In this document: in pieces, positions 3,518 through 49,905 of the stretch | How the letters are laid out: each line of letters begins with the position of its first letter | Numbering within the stretch: the first letter of the stretch is position 1 | Assembly: GCA_964036045.1 (NCBI GenBank) | Contig: OZ038378.1 | Coordinates: 12,586,001-12,650,000 of the forward strand | DNA from: Eutreptiella sp. 'Long Island Sound 2002' | Lineage: Eukaryota > Protista > Euglenida | Reading direction: 5' to 3' | DNA: 64,000 nt | Made by a program: the position numbers and the translations under genes | The notes under the pieces: model-generated | What the model was told of the DNA's origin: nothing | The model's database searches: none | Seen by the model: the letters and a program-made list of their open reading frames with translations, nothing else

Positions 3518-3542
3518 GTCGCGTTGGAGCCTGTAAATATGT

Positions 3543-4667: not shown

Positions 4668-4699
4668 TTTGCTTTTTTTTGCACTCCCTTTGTTAATTT

Positions 4700-5116: not shown

Positions 5117-5209
5117 TTTTGAATGCACCCCTGCAGAAAAAATAGGAGTGCAGAGCAACAGTTTTGACACAAACGTGATTACTAACGCGGTACCACATGA
5201 CAGTAAAGG

Positions 5210-6956: not shown

Positions 6957-6968
6957 GGTAGCAAGAGG
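6956..6968 (+). promoter_or_regulatory. primer-binding site (tRNA-iMet-like)
   Basis: TGGTAGCAAGAGG immediately after the 5' LTR. Confidence 0.7.
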
Positions 6969-7054
6969 CAGCCTGTCTCTGTGCACCGGCAGCGACCCCG
7001 CGCCGTACAACCAGTGCTCCGAGCAGGCAAACATAAGCAGAAGGGTGGATTAAG

Positions 7055-9556
7055 ATGGATCCAGGAAGAGTGGACGCCGAGGTGAACACAGCGCCAGCGC
7101 CAGAGACACCGGCAAGGCCGGCGCCTGACGCTGTACCTTCGGTGGAGCCCTTACATGGGCCAATGGATACGGCGGAGGACTCCTTGGATGGCCTCCAGAC
7201 GGCCTTTGGCGCCCTGTCGGTGAAGGAAATGGTCTCTCAGCCTCAGCCTGTGAAGAGGAAGAGAGGAAACGAGAGCGAGAAGGATGCTCGAGAAGGAGCA
7301 GACGAAGGAGAGGAGCAAGGGCAAGACCCGACGGATGTCCCTACCTTCGAAGGCGCACCAAGCGCTTCTGGCCTCCAAGCATCACCCTCTCCCATAACCA
7401 CCACACACCCAGCCGCCGCTACATCCACTTCCACAACCAACCAGCCTATGGCAGAGGGCACAGGCTTTACTGGCATGCCTCACTACCCCGCCTATGGCAT
7501 GGGCCCACCTACCACTGCGCTCCTTGAGGCAACTACTGCCAGTGAGCCGGTGGCTTCCAGCTCTGTGCCGCGTTGGTATGCGGCTGACCATCCCCATCCA
7601 CTCCACGCCACTGGAACCTACATCGAGGTTCCTGGGTATGCTCCTGGGTGTGCACCTGGGTATGCACCCCTGAGTGGGTTGAGGAGAGGACCAGAGTCTC
7701 TGGGAGGCAGGAGTAGAGGATCGGGAAGATCCTCCAACAGGTCCCTGACGCGGTCGGAGATCAATGAGGTGCTCCGAGGAGCCACTTCGCAAATCGTGAG
7801 CGACCTCACGCAAGAGATCAGGGAGAAACTGCAGCCCCTGATGATCCCGTCCCATGCGTCACCTACGACAGTGGGAATGTCACCCCACCGAGTACAGGCT
7901 AACCACCTGGCGGCAGGGTTGACGAATACCCTGGGGAGCCTGAGGAGCCGACCGATGCCGACTCCTGCAGCAGTACCAGAAAGCCCATTCGTCCCGAGGA
8001 CAGCCCAGCCGCCCTACAGTCACGTGACGAACTCGACGAGGGCCGAGCTGGACCAGCTGGGGCTGACAGCCCTAAGGGCTATGGTGGACGTGGAGCCTTA
8101 TGGCTCCAGTGATCTAGGCGGAGACCCCTCCGATGATGGACCGCCTTCGATGACTTCTTCTTCGCCATCGGATGACGAAGACCCTGAGGACCCCGAGGAC
8201 CCCAAGGGTAAGAAGAAGAAGAAGAAGAAGAAGAAGACCCGACGCCCTGAAGGACGCCGAGCTCAGGAGGCGAAGGCTATTGCCACCTCCAAGATAGTGG
8301 TGAACCTGCCTGAATTCACAGGCAAGGACCTCAGCGAGTTCGCTGAGAACTTTGGCCGGTTCCTACGACTGACCGGCCAAACCCACGCGAGTGGGCGAGT
8401 GAAGTGCGACCTGCTCCTGCAGTGCTGCAAGACGAAGTACCTGGAGAAGCAGGTCAGGCAGATCGTCACCAACTCCGCCACCTTTGCCGACGTGTTGGTT
8501 GCCCTGGAGAGGCAGTACCCAACCTACGAGACAGACCTCTCCATCAGGGCCGAGATCCAGAACCTGCCCGTCCTGCCCAACAACCCCAAACCCGGCAGGG
8601 TCTCCGAGCTGTTGGCGGACCTGGACCACTGGGCTGGACGACTGACGCCCGGTTCCTACAGCAGCGACGACCTGCTGTTTTGGTTGTGCTACAAGCTCCC
8701 CCGTGAGCTATGGGACGAGTGCCGTCTGACGGCTGAGCGCAAGGCTAGATCCCTCCGCTACGAGGATCTATGCGTGCTGCTCCTGGAGATGGCGCTGGAG
8801 AAGGAGAGCGACCAACACCTGAACCACTACCGTCCTGGTGGTGGAGGTTCTGGAGGCAAAGGGTACCAAGGGTCCCGACCTGGGCAGGGGACTACCCCCA
8901 AACACGCCCACGCCCGCCTAATGGAGAACGTGAAGGAGCTATTCTGGTGTGATGCCAGAGATGAACAGGGCCACCTGCAGCATGCCTCCGACTGCGAGCA
9001 GCGAGACTGCTTTGCTGTCCAGGGGAAGCAGCAGGAAAAGATCACCGGCGCCAAGGTGAAGATGCCGGATCATTACCGCTGCACCATCACGTGTGCATTC
9101 TGCGGTAAGCGGAAGCACTATGAGGACGAGTGCTACCATAAGCAACGCCTATCGGCGAAGCTTAAGGGGGAAGATCCTGGCAAAGGCTCAGGCAAAGGTG
9201 GAGGCAAGGCCAAAGGCAACGACTCCGGCAAGGGCAAGTCGAAAGGACGTGGTCAAGGTGGTCAAGACAAGGGTCAAGGCGGACGAGGAGGAGGCGCTAA
9301 TCGCCAGAACGACAACAAGAACAAGGACAAGAACGGAGGTAACCCCAACCCTAATCCAGGGGGGAACTCCGAGCCCTCTGGAGGGCAGTCTGGACCTACC
9401 ACACGCTCACAGACGCAGGCCCAGCAAGAACAAGGAGCCAAGCGTGAGCATGAAGGTGGTGACGACGGCAACGCCAAGAAGAGAAGCCGTTTCATGAGGA
9501 TGGCCCGCAAATTGCGGAACAAGGGGTTCGAGGTGACCTGTCCCGCGGAGTTCTGA
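7055..9556 (+). CDS. gag: Gag
   Basis: 833 aa; capsid-like LPEFTGKD region; CCHC knuckle CAFCGKRKHYEDEC; ends TGA in frame with pol. Confidence 0.9.
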   Translation: MDPGRVDAEVNTAPAPETPARPAPDAVPSVEPLHGPMDTAEDSLDGLQTAFGALSVKEMVSQPQPVKRKRGNESEKDAREGADEGEEQGQDPTDVPTFEGAPSASGLQASPSPITTTHPAAATSTSTTNQPMAEGTGFTGMPHYPAYGMGPPTTALLEATTASEPVASSSVPRWYAADHPHPLHATGTYIEVPGYAPGCAPGYAPLSGLRRGPESLGGRSRGSGRSSNRSLTRSEINEVLRGATSQIVSDLTQEIREKLQPLMIPSHASPTTVGMSPHRVQANHLAAGLTNTLGSLRSRPMPTPAAVPESPFVPRTAQPPYSHVTNSTRAELDQLGLTALRAMVDVEPYGSSDLGGDPSDDGPPSMTSSSPSDDEDPEDPEDPKGKKKKKKKKKTRRPEGRRAQEAKAIATSKIVVNLPEFTGKDLSEFAENFGRFLRLTGQTHASGRVKCDLLLQCCKTKYLEKQVRQIVTNSATFADVLVALERQYPTYETDLSIRAEIQNLPVLPNNPKPGRVSELLADLDHWAGRLTPGSYSSDDLLFWLCYKLPRELWDECRLTAERKARSLRYEDLCVLLLEMALEKESDQHLNHYRPGGGGSGGKGYQGSRPGQGTTPKHAHARLMENVKELFWCDARDEQGHLQHASDCEQRDCFAVQGKQQEKITGAKVKMPDHYRCTITCAFCGKRKHYEDECYHKQRLSAKLKGEDPGKGSGKGGGKAKGNDSGKGKSKGRGQGGQDKGQGGRGGGANRQNDNKNKDKNGGNPNPNPGGNSEPSGGQSGPTTRSQTQAQQEQGAKREHEGGDDGNAKKRSRFMRMARKLRNKGFEVTCPAEF

Positions 9557-12500
9557 CGGGGACGCTCTGGTGGCACCCAAGACCTGGTGTTTTGGGTACG
9601 TATCCGACTAGGGGGACGTGAATACCTGGGGGTACTGGATACTGGAGCCACAATATCGATAGTGGCCAAGAAAACTTTACCTTGTGGGAGCCTGAAGAAC
9701 ACCATGACCACCGCCGCTATACGGATGGGGGATGGACATGTGGTGCACAGCTGCGGGGACTGCAAAGTGGAGGTACCTATGGGCTCCAGGACTATCGCCC
9801 ATCGGTTCTATGTGATGGACACTGATGCCTTCGACTTTGTACTGGGTACTGACTTCTTCGTGCAGCACTCCCAGATACAATCCCTGACGCTGCAAGCGCC
9901 CTACCTCCTGTACGTGGACCACGGCAGTGGCAGAGAGTCTGTGCCACTGGAGCAGTCGGAACATACCTCGAGTTACCTGAGACTATCGAAGGAGGAGCCC
10001 TCGAACATGATGGCGGCCTCCAAAACTGAGGACTATCAACTATTGGGGGAAGTCCTAGACCAAGGTCTGAAGGAGTTGGGTTACTCTCGAGAAGACCTAA
10101 GTGTGGAACTGTTCGCCAGCGACAAGCAGCATGTACTGGACCTATACTGCAGCAAGGGGAAGAACTGCAGCTACAAATTTTACTGGCCCTCTTTCGGGAT
10201 GGCCTACGGGAACCCCAGATTCAGTGAACTGGGGAAGGTGCTGACCAAGGTGGCCTTGGAACGTTCCCGTATGGTCCTGTGTTCCCCCGATTGGGGAGCC
10301 CATGGGGGCAACGAGTACTGGCGAACCCTCCTTGACAAGCTGACTATCAGCTCTGTGCGGTTACCTGATGAGGCCATCTACGTGCCTCTGGGACGCAAGA
10401 CGCCCATTGGGAAGCCCGGATGGGGGAGTATGCTCAGCGTGGTGGACGGAAGTCTTACCACCATCCCCTGGGAAGACCTGGACCCTACTCTGGTCCAGGC
10501 TATACAACGAGAAAGCGATGGACTCGCCTTGGGTGACTTGAAGGATCGCCTACGACCTCAAGATGCTGTTGAAACTACACCCGGAGGAGATGAGTACGTC
10601 GTGACTGACACCAACGCCCCCAACTCTCCCTGTCATGTACCTGTCCCTGATGGAGTCTCTGAGTGTGGACTATCTGAGCTACCTAGCTCTATCCACTCAG
10701 ACGACGAAACTGAGCACGACGCCTTCTTCGTGCAGACTGCGGTGGAAGAAGTGGAGAACGCCGAGTACGTTGCCCCACTAACACCCCTACTCTCCATGAG
10801 GGTGGAAGACCCCGTGGATGAAGAGCTGGACCCTCGATCCAGGCTCAGGGAGTATGTGGATTCCAAGAGGAAGTTGGTGGCGAAAAAGCTATGCTACGCG
10901 AAGCCTACCCGCAGCTCATGGCCACTGAAGCAAGGACGGATGGGAGACCTATCCCAACTGAAGGAGGACCTCGAACAGAAGATCACCACCTGGCAAAGGG
11001 AGGTAGATCTCAAGCTCATGAAGAGCGTATGGGGTGCCCATGTGAGAACCCCAGAGGAGGACGACCTCTCGGAGGAATGTGTATGTGAACCCCCTAAAGC
11101 GTGCCTATGTTGCCATCGTCCACCGGAGATGGTTGAGCAAGACCTTCTGTATGCCTACCAAGGGCTGAAGGATGCTACCGCGGGCGAAGAGTCGGTGGAG
11201 GACCACCTCCCGACGTCTATTCAAGGGGCAAGCAACTTACACTCCGACGAGGACATGGAGGACAAGATCAAGGTACTGGACCCGCGGGTACAAAAGCTGA
11301 TAAGGACCTATCTGGAGGTGTTCGGAGAACTACCCCCTCCAGCCTCATGCGACAAGCTGGTACAGATGGACCTCAAGCTGAAACCCGAGTTCGTGGGTCA
11401 CAAGATCCGGAGGAGACCCTATGCAGCTCCTAAAGAGCAGGCCGACGAGATTGAGCGACAGATACAAGACTGTATCGACGCTGGCCTAGTCCTGGAGTAC
11501 AAGGATGGGGACTACCCCCTACACTGCAGCCCCTGTTTCCTGGTGGCTAAACCTGGGTCTACAGCCAAACGGCTGGTAGTGGACTATGGAGAGCTGAACA
11601 AGAAGACGCTGAACCACTCAGGGTCCATTCCCAATATGGAGTCTACCCTGGAGAAGATAGCCTCCTGTCGCTACAAGACCAAGATGGACAAGCGAAGTGG
11701 ATTCTGGCAAGTGGACCTGACGCCCAACGCGCAGGAACTACTGGCCTTCATCACCCCTCAGGGGATGGTATTCAAGTGGAAGGTCATGCCATTCGGCGTG
11801 GCTAACGCCCCCGCTCTGTTCCAAGAGCTGATGAACAAGATCTTGTCCATCCTACGAAGGAGACCTAAGGTGCAGGAGCTCATTTCCCGTGGGGCCCAGA
11901 TGGAGGCTCACATCGACGATGTATGCCTCGGGACCAATACCCAGGAGGATCACCTAATCCTCTTGGGTGAGTTCTTTGCGGTCTGCCAGGAGGACCACAC
12001 ACGACTCAAGCTGGAGAAGTGTGAGTTCATGCAGGAGACCATGCAGTACCTGGGGTTTGACGTTGGCTATGGGTGGTGGACCCCAGCGGCCTCTAAGGCC
12101 AAACCCCTGATGGATGCCAAGGTACGACACGAAGACCCCAAGAAAGGACTTCATGATGTACGCAGTTTCATTGGGGCGTGCAACTTCTATCGCCGCCACA
12201 TCAAAAACGTCACCTACACCAGCGCGGTACTGACTGACTTGATCAAGAAGAGTACTACTTGGCGCTGGGGCCCACAAGAGCAACAAGCGTTTGACGAGCT
12301 CAAAGACAAGGTAGCCAACGCTAAGTGCTTGGGCGTGCCTAGGGCACAAGGGGAGATTATCCTGGTGACCGACGCCAGCAATGTGGGCGGTGGTGGAACG
12401 TTGTTCCAATGGCAAGCACTAGAGAAGGAGGAGTTCGACTCGGCCATTTCCCAATGGGGGACGGAAGGTCTCAACCGAGATGGAACCCTCAAGCACAGCT

Positions 12501-14485
12501 ACCCTGACGACAAGTGGGTCCTAGTACCTCTGGGCCACTGGAACTGGAAGTGGAACCAGGCCAGGGGGAACTACTCCACCTATGAGCAGGAACTGCTCGC
12601 GGGTATGCTGGTGCTATCCTCACAAGCACGACTGTTGGGGAGTAACCCTGTGGTCTGGCTATGCGACCAAGAACCGGTCCGCAGTTTCCAGAAGGGCCCC
12701 CCACCTGAGAAGGCCAAGCTACGTCGCTGGTGGACCTACCTCAGTCAACTACGGCTGACGGTACACCATATCCAGGGAGTGAAGAACGAGTGTGCCGACT
12801 ACATCAGCCGCAACAACTTCGACGCCCTGATTGGTGCCCGGTCTGAAGCGCTGGCTAAGGAAGCGTTCAGCCGTATGGACGTACACCTGGACCTGAACAT
12901 GACCATGATACGCCCCCTGGATGGACCTCAACAATCGGAGTACCTACAGGAGTTTGGGGATATCTACCGGCGCCTGGAGAAACGCCTTGAACCCCTCCTG
13001 GTCAACCAAGACCAGTGGAAGCGGGACAAGAGCTACCTCTGGCACGAGGACCGCATCGTGGTGCCTAGTGACCGAGTCCCAGCGCTGCTGAAGTGGACCC
13101 ATGAGTCCAGTGGTCATGTGGGTGCTGACCGTACCCTGAGGCTGTTCAAGCAGTGGTTCCACACTACGTGGACTGACGACCAGCTGCGGAAGACGCTCCT
13201 GCCTATCGTGGACAAGTGCCCGTGCAGGTCCTGTAGACCAGGGGATATCAGGGACAGAGGTCTCTACTCGACCCTGCCCATCCCTCACTGTGCTAACAGT
13301 GTTCTATACGTGGACTACACGGAGATGCCGAAGTTCGGGGGCTATGACTTCGCCCTCGTGGTAACCTGTGGGTTGACCAGGTTTACCAGGGTGTTTCCAT
13401 GTACCAAGCACATTACCGGAGAGGAGACTATCAAGATACTCCTGGAGGAGTGGTTTTGTGTCTATGGGGCGCTCAAGGAGATCAACTCCGATGAGGACGT
13501 ACGAGTACGCTCAGATACTGGCTGGTACAAGAGGGTCCTGAGGTCCCTCAATGTCCAGGTATCTACGGGGATTCCCTACTCTCACACGAGCAACCCCCTA
13601 TGTGAGCGACAGATTCGTGTCCTGAAGGAGAACGTCAGGATATGGTGCAAAACTGAACGCACCAGAGACTGGGTGAGACTACTCCCCGTCATATCCTTGA
13701 TGATGAACTCCCAAGAGAGTTCAGCTACTGGCTACTCGCCACATGAGCTATTCATGGGGCGCCCGGCATGGTTCCTACATGCCCCCTTTCCAGAGGACAC
13801 CCATTCTTCTGTGGGTGAATGGGTCCAAGAGCAACAAGCGAAGGTGGACAAGGCCAAGGCTATGCTCCAGAGAGTGAGGGAGCGTCAGTGGAACAAGAAG
13901 AACAAGCACCGTGTACCGGCCACCTACCAAGAAGGGGACTGGGTGCTGGTGCACCACAGTCGACTACCCGCCTGGCCACGCTCTACCAGCGATGACCCAT
14001 ACTTCGGGCCGTACAAGATCCTATCTGTGGATGGACACCGTATCACCGTGCGGTGTTCTCCCCGTCTAGGGGGGACCCTGGTGTGCGCCGCTCAACACCT
14101 GAAGCGCTACCATGATCCTGAAGACCTCTATGGGGAGGAGTGGGAGCTGAACGACGAGGAAATCGCCGCTCTGGACCTACAAGGGGCTGCCAGCCCTATG
14201 GAAGTTGAAGGTGAACTCCCCGACATGAACGCCGAGGAGATGGCTAAGGAGGGCTTCTACCTGGTGAAGTCTGTCCTACGCCACCGCTATCGCCAGGGTT
14301 TGCGCTTCCTCACCCTCTGGGAAGGGTTTGGAGTCGAAGAGGCCACCTGGGAGCCCTTCTCTGCATTTGTTCTACCTGAGGGACGCCTAAACTCAGTTCT
14401 GGTTGACTACTTGTCCCAGAACAACCTTGGTGAGTTGTTGAGGCTCGCCGAGACGCTTGCCTCCAAGAATAAAGCTAGGGACTGA
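9557..14485 (+). CDS. pol: Pol: protease, Dam-like methyltransferase domain, RT, RNase H, integrase, chromodomain
   Basis: LDTGA; ELFAS and YGNPRF; VDYGELN, PFGVANAP, HIDD; TDAS; HHCC-like region and DDE core; GPY; LWEGF..ATWEP. Confidence 0.95.
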   Translation, partial: RGRSGGTQDLVFWVRIRLGGREYLGVLDTGATISIVAKKTLPCGSLKNTMTTAAIRMGDGHVVHSCGDCKVEVPMGSRTIAHRFYVMDTDAFDFVLGTDFFVQHSQIQSLTLQAPYLLYVDHGSGRESVPLEQSEHTSSYLRLSKEEPSNMMAASKTEDYQLLGEVLDQGLKELGYSREDLSVELFASDKQHVLDLYCSKGKNCSYKFYWPSFGMAYGNPRFSELGKVLTKVALERSRMVLCSPDWGAHGGNEYWRTLLDKLTISSVRLPDEAIYVPLGRKTPIGKPGWGSMLSVVDGSLTTIPWEDLDPTLVQAIQRESDGLALGDLKDRLRPQDAVETTPGGDEYVVTDTNAPNSPCHVPVPDGVSECGLSELPSSIHSDDETEHDAFFVQTAVEEVENAEYVAPLTPLLSMRVEDPVDEELDPRSRLREYVDSKRKLVAKKLCYAKPTRSSWPLKQGRMGDLSQLKEDLEQKITTWQREVDLKLMKSVWGAHVRTPEEDDLSEECVCEPPKACLCCHRPPEMVEQDLLYAYQGLKDATAGEESVEDHLPTSIQGASNLHSDEDMEDKIKVLDPRVQKLIRTYLEVFGELPPPASCDKLVQMDLKLKPEFVGHKIRRRPYAAPKEQADEIERQIQDCIDAGLVLEYKDGDYPLHCSPCFLVAKPGSTAKRLVVDYGELNKKTLNHSGSIPNMESTLEKIASCRYKTKMDKRSGFWQVDLTPNAQELLAFITPQGMVFKWKVMPFGVANAPALFQELMNKILSILRRRPKVQELISRGAQMEAHIDDVCLGTNTQEDHLILLGEFFAVCQEDHTRLKLEKCEFMQETMQYLGFDVGYGWWTPAASKAKPLMDAKVRHEDPKKGLHDVRSFIGACNFYRRHIKNVTYTSAVLTDLIKKSTTWRWGPQEQQAFDELKDKVANAKCLGVPRAQGEIILVTDASNVGGGGTLFQWQALEKEEFDSAISQWGTEGLNRDGTLKHSYPDDKWVLVPLGHWNWKWNQARGNYSTYEQELLAGMLVLSSQARLLGSNPVVWLCDQEPVRSFQKGPPPEKAKLRRWWTYLSQLRLTVHHIQGVKNECADYISRNNFDALIGARSEALAKEAFSRMDVHLDLNMTMIRPLDGPQQSEYLQEFGDIYRRLEKRLEPLLVNQDQWKRDKSYLWHEDRIVVPSDRVPALLKWTHESSGHVGADRTLRLFKQWFHTTWTDDQLRKTLLPIVDKCPCRSCRPGDIRDRGLYSTLPIPHCANSVLYVDYTEMPKFGGYDFALVVTCGLTRFTRVFPCTKHITGEETIKILLEEWFCVYGALKEINSDEDVRVRSDTGWYKRVLRSLNVQVSTGIPYSHTSNPLCERQIRVLKENVRIWCKTERTRDWVRLLPVISLMMNSQESSATGYSPHELFMGRPAWFLHAPFPEDTHSSVGEWVQEQQAKVDKAKAMLQRVRERQWNKKNKHRVPATYQEGDWVLVHHSRLPAWPRSTSDDPYFGPYKILSVDGHRITVRCSPRLGGTLVCAAQHLKRYHDPEDLYGEEWELNDEEIAALDLQGAASPMEVEGELPDMNAEEMAKEGFYLVKSVLRHRYRQGLRFLTLWEGFGVEEATWEPFSAFVLPEGRLNSVLVDYLSQNNLGELLRLAETLASKNKARD

Positions 14486-16749
14486 ACCTTACCCTTACCT
14501 GCCAAAGCGTATGTGTGAGTGTGCTAGTCCTAAGGTCCTGAGAGCAAGCCGCAGAAGTGGTGTCCTAATTATACCCAAGTCTGCGCCCTTGCTGAACCTG
14601 GAGGGTTGGCTTATTGATGCCACGGGGTACGCCCCGGGTCTCCCCTCCCCTATGCGCCCAATTTCTGTGCTGGCGCAAAACCTTGGGGGAATACCCAGAG
14701 TGTTAATCCAGGTATTGTTTTCCCTACCTACCTGTCTACTACAGGGAGGGGTGGCCAAAAGCTATGAAGGCATGCAAAACGCCTGTTTGCTATGTGGCCA
14801 AAAACACTAACCTAACCCACTGTCACAGCCCACCAACCCAGCTAAAATTGCAGGAAAAGGGTGGGACAGTGACACGCCCCCTACAGGTCCTACACACCCT
14901 ACAGTGGCACCATCCTGGTGGGCGAGCACTGGGCAACTGGCTCTAGCCCCCACTCAGGACTACCACTCCTACACGCACACTCTACTTGGCGTTGCGAAGA
15001 GGAAGGTCTCGAGGTTCCTAGCGACCCACCTGTGAAATGACAAGAGAACACAGCGCTGCTAAGCAACTGTGGCCTCACAGGGGACGCCACAACGCGTTTC
15101 CCCTGCAAGGGCTTGGAGGGAGGGAGTGCTCTCGTGTGCAAAGCGCAGATGTCGATGAAGTCGGACTCCCTGCTCTGCCACAGGCGGAGCGGAGTTACTT
15201 GTTTGTGGGATCTACGCCCCTGTTTAGCAGGGCATAAAAAAAATGCTGCTGCACCACTCACCCTACCTGCCCACCTGTAAAACAAAGGCAAATGAAAGGG
15301 CGTTTGCGGCGGAGGAACCAAGGCACACTCCAGGTATTATACCCTTCTCAGTGTGCCCTATAATACGCTGTCCGCAAACACGCTGCATGGAGCAGCTACC
15401 CTTGTCAAGCAAGCAAGCGTTAAGGGACTCCTCAGGTTCTCTTAAAGAACGTACCGAGGAGCCCCTGGGTAGCCTAAACAAGGTTTACCGTGCGCACTTC
15501 GCGTGGCCTACCCTTTAATGCGTGTGTGCATGCACGAGTATGCGACAAGTTCGTGGGCAAACCTGCCCATCTACGCGTAAATCTTGACTCCACCAGGGGC
15601 TGGCCCCGCCTGGGCGTACCTACCTTACCTACCGCTGGGAAGTGAAGCAAGGTGAGAGAACAAAAGGGGCGCACGCGAAGAACGTTGCTATGCACTTGTG
15701 TGTATGACTAATCACCCTGATCTGACCGCTAAACATCTGCAATCTTTCTAATCAATCCCTCTACCGCGTCCTATCGTGGTTATCGTTGTTAACGCTGCTA
15801 CACGACTCGTTCACGGAGACACGAGACGAGCAATGTGTATGCGGCATGCAAGACGAGCATACCTGTAGTTTATACCTGATTCATTGAAGTCTTTTCAATT
15901 GATTTTCGAATTCTTGAATTTTTGAAGCTTCTATTAGTGTGGGTGGAATCTGTATGTTTGTTTATTAATGTGTGTCTCGTCATTTTCAAGACTACGTGAT
16001 ACATACGTTTATAATTCCATTATTTTTCCATTTTCCGGCGCTTCGCTAGGAGCCGCTCCTGCGCGCCGCCATTTTGTACGTATGAATTTCTGGATTTAAA
16101 TAATCCAGAGATGACTATAATTTCTATAAAAATGTGCTGAAGATGCACAATTGGATTCTGCTCAGGTGTGTCGTTTCAGAAAAATTCTACGCCGTCATTT
16201 GACGGATTTTGGTGTCGTCGCTTCGTTTTTGCGTGGATTCGTCCAAATTCCTCCCCTTCCTGCCTCTGCAGATACCCACGCGCAGCCTCGCTGAGTAGGC
16301 CGTGTTCGGGCCGAAACGCAGGTGCCTGGAGAGACTGAGCAGAACCAAGACCCCACCAAGGGGGATTTTATTTTCTTTCGACTCCCTTCGCCCTAAGACA
16401 GGTCACAGGTCGCCAGCAGGTTTACGAGAACCCATGCGAGTGTGTATAATGTGTCTTGCGTTTGGGTTGTGTCGACGCTGCGTCTTGGAGGGAGGGATGC
16501 ATATGCACATGTTTGGCATGCTCCCAATCTAACCCAACCAAGCCACAGGAGCCCCGGCAGCGCCAAGAGCGCTGAGTCTTCTGTAGGAAACTGTACAATC
16601 AGAGCAGCAAAAGGACGCCAGCCATGGTGAGCGCCCATTTTTCAGTGTGAGGGAGACTGTAGGTATTTTAAAGTAGATGTGGAAACCAAGGAAAGGCCAA
16701 GAAAAATTCCCTTTTTCCTAAAATGCGACAGTGGTGGCCACCACAGCAC

Positions 16750-16757
16750 AAGGGGGG
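16750..16757 (+). promoter_or_regulatory. polypurine tract
   Basis: AAGGGGGG abutting the 3' LTR. Confidence 0.8.
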
Positions 16758-17555
16758 AGTAAGAAAAAGTGCTTTTCCATTGCTTTAGGACATACTCTAG
16801 TTGTATTAGAGATGCACTGAGCAACCATGCATTTTTATCTTAGTATTGGTCCAGCCAAAAGTGGTGAGAACACATTTTGACCTATGGAACCAAACACTCA
16901 ATCAGGATATGGAGTGGACCCCTTAATCCCCTTTCAATCAGAAGTAAAACATCTTTTCCTGAGTTGACTGAGCACTGACATACCTAAGGTAGAGCCTATG
17001 AATTTATCTATGTTTTTCCATGAATACTTATCTGCCCTAGTGGTATGCACCCTAGGGGGTTAGGCACCTCTTTTTGAGAGGTCCTGGGTTCAATTCCTGG
17101 TCAGCCTAACTAAGTAGGAAGATCCCATGTGACATGGCAGTGACCTCATCGCCACATACCATGCCACCTCAGCACATATGGGACCCAAAACAAAGAGTGC
17201 ACATCTCCTAAGATGGCACTATGGAGAGAGAGTGATCCTGAGGCAGTTTTCTAACTCTTTTCCCAAAACATTTCAGCTATCTCTGTGAATATGCATTCAT
17301 TTGTATCCTGAGTTGCAGTTTCTGTGAATATCTAATCATCTTTCACTGTTTACACTGCAGCCCTTCATGCTTTGATCCTGAATTACCTTCTCCTTGCATA
17401 CTATTGGCTTGGGCTATCCTGGATTGAGTTGGCTTTACTGTATTTCAACAAACAAAAGCTTTTCATCATCCAAAACCAGCAGCAGGACACCCTACAGCAA
17501 CAACAAGCAGCAGGAGAAGCAAAAACACAGTGCTGAAAACTCTATAAACTTTTCT
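16758..17555 (+). repeat. 3' LTR (798 bp)
   Basis: Direct repeat of 6159-6956. Confidence 0.95.
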
Positions 17556-17909
17556 CTGTCCTCACTACTACTGCTGGAGTGGGATGTTTGTTGTTTTCTT
17601 TTACGCAGTATTTTGTGCCTTGCTTTGGATGATGGTGTTCCCTCGTCATCAGCAGCATTATCAGAGTTCGACGCACCATTTGATGATGTGTGCGGGATTG
17701 ATGTATCTTGTCGGATTTCTTGTGCTCTGAGTGTTGTAGTATGTTCAGTTTGTTCGCAGATAATATCGTTGAAATCCTGTTGTGAAACTGGTTTTTCATT
17801 TTCACCCTCAGTGATGTCGGGAGACATCTTCACCAGAGCAATCTTCGATCGCATTTCACTGTTATCGGACGCGAGAAGATGTGGGTGTATAACATCTTTG
17901 TTCTCGATC
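17556..17909 (-). pseudogene. middle segment of the DUF5767-like gene
   Basis: IENKDVIHPHLL...SSSSSED; in frame with 26190-26059 and with 6158-5622. Confidence 0.65.
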
Positions 17910-18010
17910 GTATCTGGTATGGATCAGGGACGCACTTGGCGCCACACGTACACGCCTGTGCTATGAAATGTCGCTAGGTGTTTCTTCTAGTATACTTAAA
18001 CAACAATACA

Positions 18011-18886
18011 ATGAATTTCCTAACCTGGCCATTTCAAAATGGGAAGGGAGGGAAGCAGGAGACGCGCGTGATTCACATCACCAGCCATTATGATCTTAGT
18101 CCATCAAAAAAACAGGCATCAGAGACAATCGAAGACAATAAGTGGTTGGAAGAAAATTGTGGTAAATATTACAATGTTGACATCGACGGGGATGCAGTTA
18201 AAAATTCAAACATAGTCATGCGGCTCCTTGCACTCTTGGAACCGAACCAAACGGATGATCACGTGCGTCGTGTCAGGTTTCGGATACATAAAGAATCACA
18301 AATCTACAACATCCTTAAATTAATCAATGAGGCCATCAACCGTGTACATCAAACATACAGGGGGCCGACGGTCTTGGTGACGCATGGCGAGAGGCTGGGC
18401 AACCTCCTAGTGATATACCCCACTGCGGATCGTGATCGACTGCGGTTTCAGGTTATAAACCTGTTCATGCGTAAAATGCTAGAATTGTATTTGACAAGTG
18501 CAAATCAAGCTTGGGGGTCAACCTTGGGGGTATGTCGTCAGTCTGATCATGTCGCCACTTATCTTGCCGGAAAGGACCATATCGTCAAGTTTGTACCTGC
18601 TTCACGTACCACACCCGCACAGCTCGAGGCTGATGGTACCAAAATAGCATGGGCAGAGTATAATTGGCTTGGTACTGCCAATGGTATTGCCACAAATGAC
18701 GAGTACCTTATGGAAACCACCTGTATAAACCTGTATAAGAAGAGCGATGAATGTCACAATGATCTAATCCAGTTCAAAGATTACATTGCTTCTCGGTTCG
18801 ACTGTCCTGAACTGGTGAGTGACACCATCTTTGATGATGTACTTGATCGTGGTACGATAGAAACAAATCTCCAGGACGGAATCTAA
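18011..18886 (+). CDS. cargo hypothetical protein
   Basis: Long ORF (track start 17978, first ATG 18011); no motif recognised. Confidence 0.6.
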   Translation: MNFLTWPFQNGKGGKQETRVIHITSHYDLSPSKKQASETIEDNKWLEENCGKYYNVDIDGDAVKNSNIVMRLLALLEPNQTDDHVRRVRFRIHKESQIYNILKLINEAINRVHQTYRGPTVLVTHGERLGNLLVIYPTADRDRLRFQVINLFMRKMLELYLTSANQAWGSTLGVCRQSDHVATYLAGKDHIVKFVPASRTTPAQLEADGTKIAWAEYNWLGTANGIATNDEYLMETTCINLYKKSDECHNDLIQFKDYIASRFDCPELVSDTIFDDVLDRGTIETNLQDGI

Positions 18887-18959
18887 TACCAGCGTCCATA
18901 AAGGTCATGCGGCTGGGGTCCATCATAGCATGTGTTGTCCTTTCCTTTCCCCGCATACC

Positions 18960-19486
18960 CTATGCATCGGCTTCTTTCGTTCTTGGACGCAAAAAGGTTG
19001 TACCGGATCCTTCGAGTGTGCGGGTATAATCAATTGTCATGTCACAATCCTGGATTCTATCTGAGTCGTATATAAGAGTTCTGAATGATTCATCGATGCA
19101 GATTCCTGCTACAGTAATTGAAACCGGAAATTGTCTGCGCTTCAGATAATCAGGGTCTGGAGGTATAAAGAACACATTACCGATGCCATCAATGACCTGG
19201 TTTTTGAAATCTGTCAACACCCATTGATCTGTGATTTTGAATCTTATATGCACCGTAGAGTCATCATCTATGGCAAACCAAAATCCCTGGTATCCTGGCA
19301 CACCTGTGCGCCAGAGACGTGTAGTATATGCATTTTTTGTCGTTGTGTTACACATTCCACATCGAACTCCTGTACTTTTGGTTGCATTCGTTCAGCAGCC
19401 TCGATGACCTTGGCTGCGTAGGTGAGAAACTGAGTTGTACTGCTACCAGCAGTCAATTTCAATATGATCTCAGTGGTTATGGACAT
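18960..19486 (-). pseudogene. cargo hypothetical protein, probably frameshifted near 19330
   Basis: Overlapping same-strand ORFs 19268-19486 and 18960-19355 with an A-run at the overlap. Confidence 0.4.
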
Positions 19487-19532
19487 TTTCTGGCAGCCTT
19501 AATAACCGAATGAGCATATACATCGGACAAAC

Positions 19533-21284
19533 ATGATTGTCGAGCAACGGCGCATAATTAGGGGTGGGACCACATGGCATGCAAAAATTCCGAGCGACGT
19601 TGCTACTGTCTACACGCAGATAAAGAAGAAATTTCACTGGAAGAACCCTGAGAGGGCTCTGCAGTATCTGCACCTGTTCACAGTCCATTTCAACGGAAGC
19701 ACGAGCCAGTTGGTGCATCCCTCTGATCCTCGCACCCTGGCATCTGCTAGTACATGTGATGTGATCCGGGCATGGGAGGCAATGGTAGATGCACATCGCT
19801 GGACACACAAGCACATGGTCAAAGTCCGGGCTTGGCTGTCGCGGGCAATGTCAGTGCATGTAGAATCTCTGGCTTATACTATAAATCCTACACTGCGACA
19901 GGGCTCCGGGCTTAGTGTTCTATGCCATCGATCTCAGAGGCCCAGAGTGACCATTCACGAGTGTCTACCGCTTCGAGTGCGCTCCAATCTTGAGTCCCCA
20001 CTGTACAAAATCGTGACATTTTTTGTACAGCTGTTTGCACGCAGAGTATTCAGGTCGTTTTCACCCGGAACTCTGAAACATATCGCATCTTTGTTTACAA
20101 CCCTTTTTCTACCTCACAAATCACTCAAACCGCCTGATGTGGCTGCCTTCATTCAGGAAGTGGGAAAATGGGATGCGTTTGCCTGGCTATGCCTGTATGG
20201 GGAAAGTCATTCTCCGCAAAGCGTTGTCTATAGTCGATTTTACAGGGATATACGTCACCTTTCTCTGCTGCATGCCAAGGGCTTCAATGGCACCCCCCCG
20301 TTTATACCGACACCAGAAGCACCGACCATGGAGGATGGCTCTCCATCTGACATGCATGACGCTGACACTAGTGTAAGCTGGGGAAGCACTGGTGATGAGG
20401 CCAAAGATGCATGTTTAACCGTCAAACAAAGACAACTGGGGTCTTTGCTGTGGAATATTCAGCGGCAAATATGCCGTTGTCCTCACTCACTGCCCCCGGA
20501 TGGCCATCAAGATGGCAAACGGTACGCCCTAAGTGACACGGAGGTTGTTGATGTTGTCAAAAAAGCACATTCCGTGCCTGAAAGGCTGATGGTTATGCTC
20601 TTATTACAGTATGGCATGCGTATCGGGGGGCTTTGTAGGATTCGAACAACCATATCCGGAATGGAGAAAATGCTTCAGAAAGGTGCTCACGTTTTGTGGA
20701 GTGATGTCCCCAGTGACCTCAGCACATCAGAAAAAAATGGAGCTCGACGCGTCATCAGCAACTTGTCACCTCGGCTGCGTGTGCTTGTCGCTCAGTACAT
20801 GAGGTGGCACAGACCTGTTGCGGGCAGCCACAACACTTATGTTTTTACGGCTGTAGGAGGCCGTAAAGAGTTTATGGACCCCTCTACTGCTTGGCGTGTG
20901 GTTAGGGGGGTATTAACTCGCGCCAATGTGCCCACCAAGCTTGCTCATCCGCATACGTTCCGGCACACCTGTATACAAATGCTGTATAACAACGGGCTTT
21001 CGTTCACTGAGATTTCAAAGTGGATAGGCCACCGCAATGAGAGTATCACAAGTAATATCTATGGACAGTTGCAACATCAGGACCTTCAGAACAGAGTCAG
21101 CGAGAAAGTACCATTCCTCGCATCAGGGCCTCAAGTGTCCGTACGGGAGCGCTGGAAGCGCGTGGCCAAATTTTTGAGTACGGTTTACGATTTTGACAAC
21201 GATGAACAGTGCCCTCCGGCCAAGCGTGCCCATGTAACAAGACAAGAGGACATCCTTAACCGTGCAAATAATCAACCACCGTGA
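19533..21284 (+). CDS. large tyrosine recombinase, type A
   Basis: YGMR, EKNG, HPHTFRH, WIGH, SNIYG. Confidence 0.9.
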   Translation: MIVEQRRIIRGGTTWHAKIPSDVATVYTQIKKKFHWKNPERALQYLHLFTVHFNGSTSQLVHPSDPRTLASASTCDVIRAWEAMVDAHRWTHKHMVKVRAWLSRAMSVHVESLAYTINPTLRQGSGLSVLCHRSQRPRVTIHECLPLRVRSNLESPLYKIVTFFVQLFARRVFRSFSPGTLKHIASLFTTLFLPHKSLKPPDVAAFIQEVGKWDAFAWLCLYGESHSPQSVVYSRFYRDIRHLSLLHAKGFNGTPPFIPTPEAPTMEDGSPSDMHDADTSVSWGSTGDEAKDACLTVKQRQLGSLLWNIQRQICRCPHSLPPDGHQDGKRYALSDTEVVDVVKKAHSVPERLMVMLLLQYGMRIGGLCRIRTTISGMEKMLQKGAHVLWSDVPSDLSTSEKNGARRVISNLSPRLRVLVAQYMRWHRPVAGSHNTYVFTAVGGRKEFMDPSTAWRVVRGVLTRANVPTKLAHPHTFRHTCIQMLYNNGLSFTEISKWIGHRNESITSNIYGQLQHQDLQNRVSEKVPFLASGPQVSVRERWKRVAKFLSTVYDFDNDEQCPPAKRAHVTRQEDILNRANNQPP

Positions 21285-21358
21285 TTTTACGCTTTGCCTT
21301 AAGAACTTGGAACCAGAACCCAAACACACCTTTCAAATGCATGGAATATATCCGGAAG

Positions 21359-23362
21359 TCACCAGAACAGCTTTTCTTTGTCGCTGATTGATGATGATGA
21401 GGTGGTTCCATTTGTTTGGCGTTTACTGGTGTCGCAACCGGCTTGGTCCTCTAATTGCATCATTTTCAGTCGCAGATGGTTAATCTCATCACGGAGCATA
21501 TCACGTTGCACGACCATGTCTTCTAACTTATCCCACATTTTTTCATTTCCAGTAATCCCAGATGTGGTGTCCTGTATATCTGTGGGGTGAACTTCGTTGT
21601 TGCACTGTTGCATGAGATGTTGCACTTTGTGCTGTATCTCAAATTCTGAAAGGTAGGAATTGTGGGTGGTGACCGAACCGCCATGGCCAATCCATTTGGC
21701 AACTACATCAATCGGGACCCCCTTCGTAACAAGGCTTGTGCAGAGAAACTTACGCCATCTGTGGTGGTTGAAAGGCTGTATTCCGGCACGGCGACACAGT
21801 GACCTCAGTATACCATCTATGATAAACTTCGGACATACTGGACCATGGGTGAAAACATGCTGGTCTTGACTTACCTGTCTGTGTTCATTCATGTAATCAG
21901 CTATGGCACTCTGAGTTTCAGCAGAGAAGCAGATCCGTCGCTCCTTACTGCCTTTTTCGATCACAATTGTGGACTCTCGTGCTGCATTCAGGTTTGGGTC
22001 CCATATGTGACTGATGCGCATATCGCTGACAGCTTGAATGCGCAGTCCCGTGGTTTTGCTGGTGCTTATGTACAGTCTCTCCCTGGGTGTACGGGCCACA
22101 GATGATAGTTGTTGAATGTGCTGTTCATTGATATCGAATATCGGTATCATAGGTAGATGTTCGGGTTCCTCCCTGTATAAATCAGGTTGCTGTAGTGCCA
22201 GGTCAGACAGCATGAGCATGACCTCAGTGTAGTCAATTTTGTGGCACGGATCCACGGCTGGGGCGAAGACACCAGCCTCCTTCCAGTTGTAGACCGTACC
22301 GAGTAGACCATCAGTTGGACATTGCTTTTTGTGTGTGTCTTCCTTGTGTCCTCTCAATTTTGAAAATCGATTGAAAATACCACAAAGTCGTGCACAGAAA
22401 CAATAAAAGATACGCAGTGTCAGTTCTTCTCTGGCTTTGCCGCGTATGACTTGTTGCAATGGTGCCTCGACGGCGAAACCCTCGGAGCTCTTGAGTTTGT
22501 ACAGCCACAAAAGTAGTCTACTGGTCTCACGATCAAGTGCACGTTCTGCCCTGTCAACGTTACGCCGCCCCTTCATTGCTGCCAGTCGTCTTCTGCGACT
22601 GACGGATGGTAAAATATCCACGGTAATTACCTGGATGTCCTCGGCTGGTGGTTGTTCTCTGTGAAGTATACGTCCAGTTAGGATAAATGTTTTCAATAAC
22701 GGGTGGCGATCCCAGAACTCACTCTCAGCATACTTCCTTGTAATTCTCCAGTACCCTGATTTGTCATATTGTTTTTGTATACAGGCGATGGCATGAAGAA
22801 CCCAGCGTTCCCATTTGTATTGACGGGCCAGGGCAGCTCTTTCTTTGATAGTCAGATCTAATATACCTATTGCAGCTGTCATTCTCTTCGATCGAATGAT
22901 TGCCGGCAGAACGAGTTCTGTGAGCTTGATTAATCTTCCGGTGGTACAATAACTTTTGTTCTGAGGTGGTATCATCCGCACAAGTTCTGTGGCCATTGCG
23001 GCCTCTTGTTTTGTGACATCGGCTACCACAATAATCTGATCAATCTCCCTGCGAATGTTCAGTTGTTTCAATTCCGATGGTCTCGTGGTTGCATATCCGA
23101 GACGCCGCATCAGGGCGTTCATAAAAGTGGCCACGACACGGCGGCACGGGCGATCCTCTGCTTGTAAATGACTTATGAATGAGTATAGGAGGGTGATCCA
23201 GTCGCTTCTCGGAGTTGCCTCAGCTTCAACAGGATTTGTAAATCCACAAAAGGCTATGAAGGTGTAAAGGTAAACCTGTGAATGTGAGTGGTTTCGATGT
23301 TTGGTTTTCAAACTTCCATGATCCACCCTGTAAGGGGCGCCGTAATTGGTTCTCGGATCCAT
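21359..23362 (-). CDS. large tyrosine recombinase, type B
   Basis: TTGLR, EKGS, NHHRWR, WIGH, THNSY. Confidence 0.88.
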   Translation of the reverse strand: MDPRTNYGAPYRVDHGSLKTKHRNHSHSQVYLYTFIAFCGFTNPVEAEATPRSDWITLLYSFISHLQAEDRPCRRVVATFMNALMRRLGYATTRPSELKQLNIRREIDQIIVVADVTKQEAAMATELVRMIPPQNKSYCTTGRLIKLTELVLPAIIRSKRMTAAIGILDLTIKERAALARQYKWERWVLHAIACIQKQYDKSGYWRITRKYAESEFWDRHPLLKTFILTGRILHREQPPAEDIQVITVDILPSVSRRRRLAAMKGRRNVDRAERALDRETSRLLLWLYKLKSSEGFAVEAPLQQVIRGKAREELTLRIFYCFCARLCGIFNRFSKLRGHKEDTHKKQCPTDGLLGTVYNWKEAGVFAPAVDPCHKIDYTEVMLMLSDLALQQPDLYREEPEHLPMIPIFDINEQHIQQLSSVARTPRERLYISTSKTTGLRIQAVSDMRISHIWDPNLNAARESTIVIEKGSKERRICFSAETQSAIADYMNEHRQVSQDQHVFTHGPVCPKFIIDGILRSLCRRAGIQPFNHHRWRKFLCTSLVTKGVPIDVVAKWIGHGGSVTTHNSYLSEFEIQHKVQHLMQQCNNEVHPTDIQDTTSGITGNEKMWDKLEDMVVQRDMLRDEINHLRLKMMQLEDQAGCDTSKRQTNGTTSSSSISDKEKLFW

Positions 23363-23615
23363 TTGTGCGCGATGTCTTTTGTGTAGGATGTCATCAGACG
23401 GAACCTGTTTTCCTGTCGGTACTATTTTGCTTTACGAGAGTTCTCCATTACGGATTACAATGCCACCTGTATCAAGCGCTCCATTTGCTACTGAGCAAAA
23501 AATCTCAAACCATGATGGGTACATGGGTAGCTGAAAAATTCAACGGTGACCTGAATTGTAGTCAATATAAATGGAGATCAAATGGAGAACCAAACGCCAA
23601 TTGCAGAGGGGGTAA

Positions 23616-24653
23616 TTGCTAGCAGAAGCCAGACTACTGCTCCTAGACATACTCAATACACTTATATCTACGGATCTGACAGAAACATTAGACACACTTG
23701 AGTTTAAGCAGAGCCTAGACTGTAGCAAAGCGTTGAAACTGAAATCATATCGGAAATTAATTCGTATGGGCAGACAGCTTCCTGTTAGCAAATCAGCCAT
23801 TAGAATACTGTTCGAGGTGTTGTACAAATTGAGCATCGGAGGAAAACCAGTAACCTTCACAATGTTTCTCACCCCATACACCCCATATATCGACACACCC
23901 CCCAATATTGAGGCAAAATACATTTTCAATACCTACATCCTCCCTGAACTGCAAAGACTACTGACAACGAAACATAATGGCAAACTGCTGGTTTCAGAAG
24001 ATGACGACGAGGTCAGACTTGAAGTGCAATGGGAACACCAGACCGCGCGCAGCATCAGACACCAGGCAGTCCTGACCGCACAGCATCGAACTATACGCAG
24101 ACAGGCATGTAGCCTTGCCTCAAAAATGATGCAAATACTTTTGATTGCCGACTCATCATTGTCTAGAGTTCAAATCTGGGATTATAATTACGACAGGACT
24201 GCTATGGTGACCATGAAAGTGTATCGTCAGCGCTATGAAACTACGCTTGACACCCGGCTGCCATCAAATGGAGAATTCATGGAGATACTCCACCAAATTT
24301 TTTCCTATCACCAGGTCGAGAAAATGCCTCTCCGATTCTCAATCGATCTATATTGCTACGCTAAATCCAACCAAATTCGTGGCATGGAGATCACAGCGCA
24401 GCTCGAAAAATTTGTTATACCCCAGTTACGACGCCTTTTCGCTGAACGCGACCCTGAGAATGAAATTGAGGTACGGCATCTCAGTACCGAATTGATTGAG
24501 TTAAACATCACGTGGCCCGGAGACACGAAATTCGCACATGCTGCGCACAGGGGACTCGAAAAAAAGGGGATGTGTCAAAATCTATTCGGAAACACTCTGG
24601 AATTCCTACCACAATTCAGTCAGGACATTCGAAAGCACAGACAATTGCAATAA
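23616..24653 (+). CDS. cargo hypothetical protein with internal duplication
   Basis: YILPELQRLL...EVQW and FVIPQLRRLF...NITW; true start may be about 23582 with a G-run frameshift. Confidence 0.55.
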   Translation: MLAEARLLLLDILNTLISTDLTETLDTLEFKQSLDCSKALKLKSYRKLIRMGRQLPVSKSAIRILFEVLYKLSIGGKPVTFTMFLTPYTPYIDTPPNIEAKYIFNTYILPELQRLLTTKHNGKLLVSEDDDEVRLEVQWEHQTARSIRHQAVLTAQHRTIRRQACSLASKMMQILLIADSSLSRVQIWDYNYDRTAMVTMKVYRQRYETTLDTRLPSNGEFMEILHQIFSYHQVEKMPLRFSIDLYCYAKSNQIRGMEITAQLEKFVIPQLRRLFAERDPENEIEVRHLSTELIELNITWPGDTKFAHAAHRGLEKKGMCQNLFGNTLEFLPQFSQDIRKHRQLQ

Positions 24654-24679
24654 TCGATGTTGAGAATTACAATCTCTCT

Positions 24680-25966
24680 CTACATTAGCAATGTTGCCCC
24701 GACTCTGTCGGCAGGTTTACCAAGTACAGGCAGCGACTGTGTGACTGCAAAATACTCTCTGAGTACATCGAACAGGGACTGCAGAATCAGGCGGCTTCTG
24801 TCGCAATTCCAATATAGGATAAAGAGGTCTCGACCCACATTCTGGAGGGTTTGCCAGTCCATTATGCCATCGACGACAAGCATCAACAAAAAGAGGTGAA
24901 CCCGCGACTCATTACTGGACATCCAGTACTCTGTTGCCACCTCATCGATATATGTCAGGACCCCTGTAGCTGTCCGCTGAAAGTGCCCGACTGAATGTAT
25001 GCCATCGAGTAGATCTCCAAGTAGGTGATCCCAATTTTTATAAAGGCGTACATAGTGTTCGCGTGTGGCTAACAATTCCGTGTTACTGCTTTCAGCCCGA
25101 TCAATGGTAGTCAAAATGGCATGCGTAATTTCGTGCACCAGTGTGTCTATCGCCTCGGAGACATCACTGTTAGTTATTTCCGGTAGTGGCACAGCGGCTG
25201 CATGCGAAGCACGGCAAAACATACCCTTTGTTGTTGCTCGGTTGAATGGAAAACATAAATCTTTTCTGCCGACTTGAATTGTACTGATAGCACGTTCGTA
25301 CACACGCCACAGAGGTTCGTCGTTAATATGTGCATACAAACTTCTGTTATGATACTGGATGAGTTTCCAAAGATTTGAATGTACAATATACACCGTCAGT
25401 CCAAAGAGATTCACAACAATGTCCGAATTAGACATGCCATATTTTTTCAGGGCCTGATGAAAAATTAGTTGTGTTGGTTTCATGACCTTGGTATGATACA
25501 AAGTCAAATCGCTGATTGTGTAATTGATAGAATCCTGTCGCCCGTATGCACTGAGCAGCAGTTCTCCGAGTGGGTGTTGTACATCCACATATTGAATGTC
25601 GAAGCCATGCGTCACCGACCTTTCCCGCTCTGTGTGTTTTTCCCAGAGCTGTGTGACAGGATTGGACAACAGTATGTAAACAGCGAAATATAATGACATA
25701 TCTATACAGAATCCCAGTATAACACACACCGCGACGATCCTACAGGCCCAGATGGTGCACCTCTCTGGGTGCTTGGGTGCTATCTGCAGCGTGGTCAAAA
25801 ATTTGCAAATATGGCATGCTGATGGCGCTTTTTTTTGCAGCGAGGTCCACTCGCTTATAAAAGTTAAAAGCTCGTCGCGTAGTGACTGTGTAGCGAAATC
25901 CGAGCAATCGTCATTACAGATGCCAGTTAGCCATTTGCAATACAACCGGTTTTTGCATATGTCCAT
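24680..25966 (-). CDS. putative zincin-type metallopeptidase (cargo)
   Basis: TLVHEITHAIL (HExxH) and downstream DEVATE. Confidence 0.6.
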   Translation of the reverse strand: MDICKNRLYCKWLTGICNDDCSDFATQSLRDELLTFISEWTSLQKKAPSACHICKFLTTLQIAPKHPERCTIWACRIVAVCVILGFCIDMSLYFAVYILLSNPVTQLWEKHTERERSVTHGFDIQYVDVQHPLGELLLSAYGRQDSINYTISDLTLYHTKVMKPTQLIFHQALKKYGMSNSDIVVNLFGLTVYIVHSNLWKLIQYHNRSLYAHINDEPLWRVYERAISTIQVGRKDLCFPFNRATTKGMFCRASHAAAVPLPEITNSDVSEAIDTLVHEITHAILTTIDRAESSNTELLATREHYVRLYKNWDHLLGDLLDGIHSVGHFQRTATGVLTYIDEVATEYWMSSNESRVHLFLLMLVVDGIMDWQTLQNVGRDLFILYWNCDRSRLILQSLFDVLREYFAVTQSLPVLGKPADRVGATLLM

Positions 25967-26058
25967 CTGCCTTTATGTGTACATATATGCTGAAGAAGAA
26001 TAAAAAAAAGACAAGAAACCCAGGGGAGGGCGCTAACCGCATCCATGGCCCATGCAAG

Positions 26059-26190
26059 GTTCTCGATCCAAAGCAGAAATAGTTCATCGTCGGCATTCAC
26101 ATCTTTACAATGCACATCGGCGCTCGGTATGTAGTGTGGTACAGCTGGCTCCAAAAAAAATGTTGCCTTTTTGTCAATGATTGGTGACAT
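26059..26190 (-). pseudogene. 5' segment of the DUF5767-like gene
   Basis: MSPIIDKK...ELFLLWIEN ends at the direct repeat. Confidence 0.6.
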
Positions 26191-48235: not shown

Positions 48236-48253
48236 AATACACACAAACATTTA

Positions 48254-49894: not shown

Positions 49895-49905
49895 GGCTCA
49901 TCTTC

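Follow-up and report, generated by a model that had tools for sequence, protein, structure and literature searches.

A probable site-specific integrative element with two tyrosine recombinases splits a conserved gene of a probably endogenous giant virus in Eutreptiella

Introduction

The described elements closest to the one reported here are bacterial. SE, GInt and Tn554 elements combine two intact tyrosine recombinases with imperfect inverted ends, a 6-bp spacer, target specificity and cargo, and have Tfp, Srap or TnpC accessory genes (PMC10214605, as far as its available text goes). In cyanobacteria, multi-kilobase elements with their own recombinase lie between direct repeats within conserved genes (nifD/XisA, hupL/XisC), with variants in different genes that have little cargo in common (PMC4874684, available part). 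Here we describe an element at positions 17900 to 26068 of a 64,000-nucleotide stretch of Eutreptiella sp. 'Long Island Sound 2002' (assembly GCA_964036045.1, contig OZ038378.1, positions 12,586,001 to 12,650,000; hereafter the window), where it splits a conserved giant-virus gene. It functions like SE/Tn554 and is built like the cyanobacterial interruption elements, yet fails defining features of each.

Tn554, with two recombinases and TnpC, is described in the same available text as lacking a target duplication (PMC10214605), whereas the present element has a 10-bp repeat and no TnpC-like match in Pfam or NCBIfam. The SE/GInt core consists of intA, tfp, intB and srap, whereas the two recombinase genes here, A and B, are adjacent and sister elements share no other gene. 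The elements also differ from SE/GInt/Tn554 in lying in a eukaryotic giant virus, in their enzymes (580 to 670 amino acids, unrelated outside the catalytic domain), in their direct repeats of 10 to 12 bp and in the variable orientation of A and B. RIT elements likewise have several tyrosine recombinases and inverted ends of ~34 bp, but their bacterial enzymes are three, overlapping in tandem and of 315 to 410 amino acids (PMC10214605, available text); here they are two and larger. The cyanobacterial elements have a single recombinase near the element end, and their excision has been shown in heterocyst development (PMC4874684, available part), whereas the element here, which interrupts a gene as they do, has two central recombinases and an excision that is conceivable.

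The mobilome of giant viruses, in the available parts of the sources, has so far comprised IS-type transposons, introns, inteins, virophages, transpovirons and single recombinases by which an entire virus is integrated (PMC13236599; 10.1101/299784). IS4/Fanzor transposons, virophages, transpovirons and MIGEs are likewise restricted to giant-virus DNA (10.1101/299784; PMC13236599), but they carry DDE transposases or capsid genes, none of which was recognised in the element. The phaeovirus integrase is likewise a tyrosine recombinase encoded by an endogenous giant virus, with inverted repeats about a core; it differs in that one gene serves to integrate the complete virus at a 2-bp core (PMC13236599, available text), whereas here several paired enzymes sit on small elements inside viral genes. 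DIRS and Ngaro elements are defined by a reverse transcriptase with RNase H, which this element does not have. No such class appears in the available text of a review on the mobile elements of giant viruses (10.1101/299784), and the recombinase clusters of Amoebidium have a different arrangement (PMC11244446, available part). Our literature search, outside of which lay subscription papers and supplements, found no paired-recombinase element in giant viruses, which does not prove that none has been described.

Results and discussion

The element splits a conserved viral gene

17900..26068, no strand: whole element, both repeat copies included (8159 bp plus one repeat)
26059..26190, minus strand: target piece 1, 44 amino acids, DUF5767-like giant-virus protein
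17556..17899, minus strand: target piece 2, ~114 amino acids
5622..6158, minus strand: target piece 3, 178 amino acids, contains the conserved domain
6159..17555, plus strand: Ty3-type long terminal repeat (LTR) retrotransposon in the target gene, with 798-bp LTRs 99.7% identical and a 5-bp target duplication

A reading made from the letters of the window alone had proposed that removal of 8159 bp fuses two coding pieces in frame, and the homologues of the target gene agree. From 34 matches of at least 190 amino acids, 12 homologues were selected for full N termini; pieces 1 and 2, aligned to them separately, join with zero gap in 10, and in the other two one piece was placed elsewhere by chance. 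The two pieces are thus contiguous within one homologue family, the point on which the sequence-only reading had made its proposal depend. Homologue N termini bear a W-x-E-N-K motif, in which W41, E43 and K45 are conserved in at least 90% of 14 rows, and the break lies between N44 and K45, within the most conserved N-terminal motif of the family.

Piece 2 is not the end of the gene, which resumes beyond the retrotransposon with a third piece (6158-5622). A HMMER search with piece 3 retrieved 55 proteins at E<=0.001, and an earlier homologue search with it among longer proteins gave 0 of 394 candidates. One gene thus stands in three parts, cut by the recombinase element within the W-x-E-N-K motif and a second time by the retrotransposon. 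PF19071 (DUF5767) is matched by 5 of 18 target homologues, one of them above the cut-off, and gave no match to the target piece of the window. In eight homologues (P0143, P0145, P0151, P0157, P0160, P0161, P0162 and P0130) unrelated residues stand just ahead of the W-x-E-N-K motif, as though in other viruses an intron or an element interrupted the gene close to the position of the break seen here.

Ends of the element

17900..17909, plus strand: left 10-bp direct repeat, the last 6 bp of which (17904-17909) are the predicted crossover spacer
26059..26068, plus strand: right copy of the 10-bp direct repeat, with its predicted spacer at 26063-26068
17910..17943, plus strand: left arm of a degenerate inverted repeat, 23/34 with the right arm, predicted recombinase binding site
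26029..26062, minus strand: right arm of the degenerate inverted repeat, pairs with the left arm

The 10-bp direct repeat that had been noticed at the two ends, GTTCTCGATC, is present at 17900-17909 and again, 8159 bp further on, at 26059-26068, with no third copy on either strand of the window. Recurrent 10-mers are common in themselves (1913 distinct ones within 17.5-64 kb). The two 50-bp stretches compared here were set by protein homology, and a 10-mer match inside two stretches fixed in this way occurred in 0.0022 of ~20,000 random pairs; the repeat coincides with the homology breakpoint.

No convincing terminal inverted repeat had been seen in the sequence-only reading, which needs correction on this point, as a degenerate one exists. 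In a scan of all spacers of 4-10 bp inside the direct repeat, the best axis has arms that pair at 23 of 34 positions about a 6-bp spacer formed by the final 6 bp of the direct repeat (0/5000 random pairs as good). The inner ends, 17914-17943 against 26029-26058, pair at 21 of 30 bp (0/3000 random 40-bp pairs), and the inverted-end alignment has p=0.001 when the ends are taken as 60 bp and is not significant with 150-bp ends (p=0.11). The symmetry formerly described for the empty site is also there: a 5-bp inverted pair about a 9-bp spacer is present at the target, and 7 of 12 bases pair. The 6-bp-spacer axis sits 1.5 bp off this 9-bp axis. Short direct end repeats that restore the target and inverted arms about a spacer of 6-8 bp are the build of a lambda/Xer-type integrative element, here with degenerate arms and weak pairing on the target side.

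The GC content of the element is 0.465, against 0.438 in the viral flank, and 88% of it is coding. Read on the plus strand (the target gene is on the minus strand), the interior (17910-26058) starts with GT and ends with AG, probably by chance.

The two recombinases

19533..21284, plus strand: tyrosine recombinase A, 583 amino acids, PF00589 above the cut-off
21359..23362, minus strand: tyrosine recombinase B, 667 amino acids, convergent with A, PF00589 above the cut-off

The convergent recombinase pair seen in the open reading frames (ORFs) is confirmed by the PF00589 matches of both proteins. Their genes are adjacent, 74 bp apart, and lie centrally in the element. A and B both have the domain and the R-K-H-R-H/W-Y residues of the tyrosine recombinase superfamily: in A, R363, K401, H474, R477, H500 and Y510 are invariant across 12 aligned sequences, and the motifs corresponding to these six catalytic residues are kept in B. 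Both also match Xer-type models, far under the cut-offs of those models, and the predicted structure of A (mean pLDDT 74) has a fold match to XerA with E=8.6e-7. The profiles of A and B can be aligned across the 166-column catalytic domain alone.

In a midpoint-rooted tree of 35 catalytic domains, all kept and drawn from sources other than Crypton and phaeovirus sequences, nine database proteins fall into one group with the three A proteins of the window (98/99), P0187 groups with the three window B proteins (98/92), and A and B jointly separate from phage and bacterial rows (93/93). On these sequences A and B appear as two distinct deep clades. A single recombinase of the Crypton clade is what defines Cryptons; here PF00589 was the sole domain matched. 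Relatives of A and B occur in metagenomes at ~30% identity. On two JGI contigs (L031:525-1320 and L032), A-type relatives of 51% identity have a frame-changing insertion in the catalytic domain, possibly an intron.

Inserts of like build in the same window

45823..57596, no strand: sister element of 11.8 kb, bounded by a 12-bp direct repeat and inserted in the gene for the A32 packaging ATPase
3518..5220, no strand: insert of 1.7 kb that lacks a recombinase, bounded by an 11-bp direct repeat, in the gene downstream of the target

Four A or B sets lie inside the 64 kb, with a mutual identity of 19-27%. The 11.8-kb sister has perfect 24-bp arms (24/24) about a 6-bp spacer, and its A (48254-49894) and B (49906-51816) are in tandem, whereas they are convergent in the 8.16-kb element. 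Of the two A32 pieces, one aligns with residues 20-70 and the other with residues 68-115 in the intact A32 of locus L051, and 0/1000 shuffles scored as high for either. The proposal that the two elements are of one class with different targets gains support from the presence in each of one A-clade and one B-clade recombinase, a direct repeat of 10-12 bp in a conserved viral gene and inverted arms about a 6-bp spacer. No cargo besides A and B is shared between them.

In the 1.7-kb insert the 6-bp-spacer axis ties for best, weakly, with 16/34. This insert holds one orphan ORF of 294 amino acids and is a possible non-autonomous member; a homologue (P0123) of the gene that it splits has a weak match to Mrr-type nucleases. 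Further recombinases, for which element boundaries were not found, are a B at 769-2679 and a divergent pair of A and truncated B at 60907-63555.

Viral context and other copies

Window genes include a double-jelly-roll major capsid protein, RPB1, TFIIS, an ERCC4 nuclease and a UvrD helicase. The best solved relatives of the capsid protein are 7yjl and 6ojn (E of 1e-56 or better), which we take to be marseillevirus/iridovirus capsids; PBCV-1-type capsids reach 1e-3 to 1e-8. About 50 metagenomic capsids, none of them assigned to a family, are 50-70% identical to it, and an alignment searched against the viral contig collection gave no relative above 36%. In run X1 the summed depth of the LTR is ~1e6, against ~150 for the viral DNA, and this very high depth of the adjoining retrotransposon suggests that the virus is endogenous to a eukaryote genome. 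Between the two LTRs 2 of 798 bases are different, which points to a recent insertion. Compared with two sister copies, the capsid gene of the window is damaged at its 5' end. The region likely represents an endogenous virus of iridovirus/marseillevirus type that is decaying.

The stretch or part of it is present in nine runs of four studies, which comprise two organism labels and estuary metagenomes, and organism B contributes one contig that runs across the right junction. The estuary runs contribute small shares, and run X7, with pieces of 151-175 bp at depth ~2, was not used as evidence. Five long ENA contigs carry element genes that are 88-99% identical (B on five, A on four, the gene with the HExxH motif on four), with A and B both whole on two of the five and a broken recombinase on the other three. 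Among 40 of the 349 listed variants, 32 were classed, 11 as synonymous and 21 as non-synonymous, which is near neutral. The gene copies on five contigs, the near-neutral variation and the capsid damage together suggest that the element likely predates the spread of the copies and decays with them. Runs X1, X3 and X5 all show small insertions near the 5' end of B (23309) and near the 3' end of the gene with the HExxH motif (24682), and the window calls at these two positions thus differ from other copies.

Searches for relatives elsewhere gave little. Viral contigs yielded no match to a single A protein, the target alignment or the B alignment, and alignments of A retrieved 10 and 20 loci there that match in the catalytic domain only, that is, generic integrases. 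Two short true relatives without a partner gene came from metagenome contigs, two generic integrase loci from genome contigs and two weak matches for B from plasmids.

Mode of entry and alternative explanations

Lambda-, Cre- and Xer-type enzymes exchange strands across a short spacer, and XerC and XerD are two enzymes that serve two unequal half-sites. The anatomy described above is best explained, with good though not complete confidence, by site-specific integration, in which tyrosine recombination over a 6-bp spacer would have brought the element in and two enzymes would have served two half-sites of unequal sequence. The element would enter as a circle, and A and B would bind the degenerate inverted arms at its ends together with the partly matching half-sites of the target. 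Strands would then be exchanged over the 6-bp spacer in the manner of the lambda-, Cre- and Xer-type enzymes, with the two different enzymes dividing the half-sites as XerC and XerD do. The family members each have a separate target within a conserved coding motif of the virus, which would provide a landing site in many related viruses. Together with its sister in the packaging-motor gene, the element likely marks an undescribed family of site-specific, putatively mobile parasites of giant viruses. It has probably become fixed by now in an endogenous virus that is decaying.

Several results weigh against this explanation. Junctions and depth were followed in the contigs of four runs, and contigs drop rare forms; in all four the empty site and the circle joint were absent, there were no extra copies and the depth in the element was not above that of the flank. 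No related locus with its flanks was recovered from viral or metagenome contigs, and the structure model of B (pLDDT 35.5) is unusable. The arms on the target side pair at 6 of 12 positions on the axis of the element and at 7 of 12 on the 9-bp axis, and because of this weak pairing the 6-bp crossover is a prediction.

The absence of an empty site would be expected if the element were of the copy-out type of SE/Tn554, in which a circular copy is made, no empty site is left and the target gene is destroyed permanently; such elements would build up in proviruses that lie dormant or in defective genomes that receive help in trans. SE likewise have two recombinases, imperfect inverted ends and a spacer of 6 bp (PMC10214605, available text). 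On the other side, no Tfp-, Srap- or TnpC-like gene was recognised, the cargo is not common to the elements, the exact repeat of 10-12 bp indicates a homology-dependent exchange, and the circle that copy-out should yield was likewise unseen in the contigs of the four runs. We regard copy-out, and the accumulation in silent genomes that goes with it, as unlikely. The opposite possibility is a DNA-level intron, carried by the replicating virus and precisely excised on reactivation of the provirus, either as a tolerated parasite or as a latency lock on genes such as the packaging ATPase, comparable to the cyanobacterial nifD-type elements. Three conserved viral genes are cut at exact repeats, and a virus with a split A32 ATPase would be unable to package without excision or help in trans; if the elements rode in a replicating virus, the split A32 would thus demand one or the other. 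The occurrence of element genes on five long contigs that are up to 12% diverged, their presence in runs under two organism labels and the wholeness of both enzymes on two contigs fit such carriage. It is nevertheless unlikely, as neither empty site nor circle was found in the contigs of 4/4 runs, variation among copies is near neutral, the window copy has further lesions and integration alone already predicts the exact repeat. Its extension to the whole family, as DNA-level introns in conserved genes that include the packaging ATPase, with an excision that each gene would need in order to work and that would act as a recombination-controlled latency switch of an endogenous giant virus, akin to nifD elements, we consider more doubtful still. 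The DNA-level intron and copy-out refine rather than exclude the integrative element, and copy-out fits equally well if dormant copies were hit.

Two further explanations would remove the element altogether. The recombinases might be the integrase or resolvase genes of the virus itself, as in phaeoviruses, which use a tyrosine recombinase as integrase (PMC13236599, available text), and the repeat the scar of a one-off rearrangement. The GC content of the element is near that of the viral flank, and the longest contigs (Logan) of P0185, a protein of A type, and P0122, the closest intact target homologue, are both of 26,302 bp, a hint of one contig, so that the P0185 enzyme may lie near an intact target gene. 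The phaeovirus enzyme, however, is single and lies near the provirus ends, whereas here four divergent sets occur in 64 kb, and two of these, each with repeats and arms of its own, lie inside conserved genes; the sister element already largely refutes this explanation, which is very unlikely. A giant RNA intron that is spliced out would account for an exact in-frame break in a conserved motif, and some homologues seem interrupted just upstream of that motif. On the strand of the gene, however, GT-AG, GC-AG or AT-AC ends occur in 0 of 11 possible registers, there is no Rfam match at E<=0.5, and the element has neither reverse transcriptase nor homing nuclease, which makes splicing hardly credible.

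Site-specific paired-recombinase elements in conserved viral coding motifs would add genomic islands of a bacterial style to the mobile elements of eukaryotic viruses. Such elements would explain the apparent loss or truncation of core genes in endogenous giant viruses, and they would offer a natural enzyme set with different 6-bp cores for the study or engineering of specificity. They also raise a directly testable question, namely, whether the elements kill proviruses or gate their reactivation.

Cargo and neighboring features

18011..18886, plus strand: cargo ORF, 291 amino acids, no family match, deletions in other copies
18960..19355, minus strand: cargo ORF, 131 amino acids, no family match
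23766..24653, plus strand: cargo ORF, 295 amino acids, no family match
24680..25966, minus strand: cargo ORF, 428 amino acids, HExxH at residue 278, metallopeptidase as a lead only

Six ORFs lie between the repeats: these four, none of which has a match in Pfam, NCBIfam or PHROGs, and, between the second and third of them, A and B. A polinton-like virus or virophage would be marked by capsid, packaging ATPase or polymerase genes within the element, and at the level of these three family collections the four cargo ORFs gave no sign of them. The 428-residue protein had been called an HExxH peptidase; the motif is there, at residue 278, and the peptidase identity goes no further than the motif, with a best score of 0.77 in an Atlas query as a lead. 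A kinship of the 291-residue ORF with the 294-residue ORF of the 1.7-kb insert was rejected, since their common five-residue motif failed a shuffling test, and the comparison of the 295-residue ORF with a 247-residue ORF gave E=0.11. A promoter and terminator scan with bacterial consensus sequences stayed under the shuffled background.

Beside the target gene, the product of 26196-27287 is presumably TBP-like; it has no Pfam or PDB match that would confirm this. The retrotransposon has non-canonical LTR ends, AG...CT instead of TG...CA, and a weak chromodomain match (E=0.005). A capsid related to that of the window (57%) occurs in the P0039 cluster on several ENA contigs of 0.7-2.9 Mb and likely belongs to another multi-copy endogenous virus of the same lineage.

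Past the second A32 piece (57850-64000) the A32 gene breaks off again. This region holds two paralogous convergent ORFs (58318-59058 and 59216-60040), with a decayed third copy near 57782-58150, and the paralogs together with the divergent A/B pair suggest another element with its right end outside the window. The cargo of the 11.8-kb element contains degenerate tandem repeats of 180-260 bp at 46530-47630 and 48092-48336, which are partly coding (an ORF of 363 amino acids).

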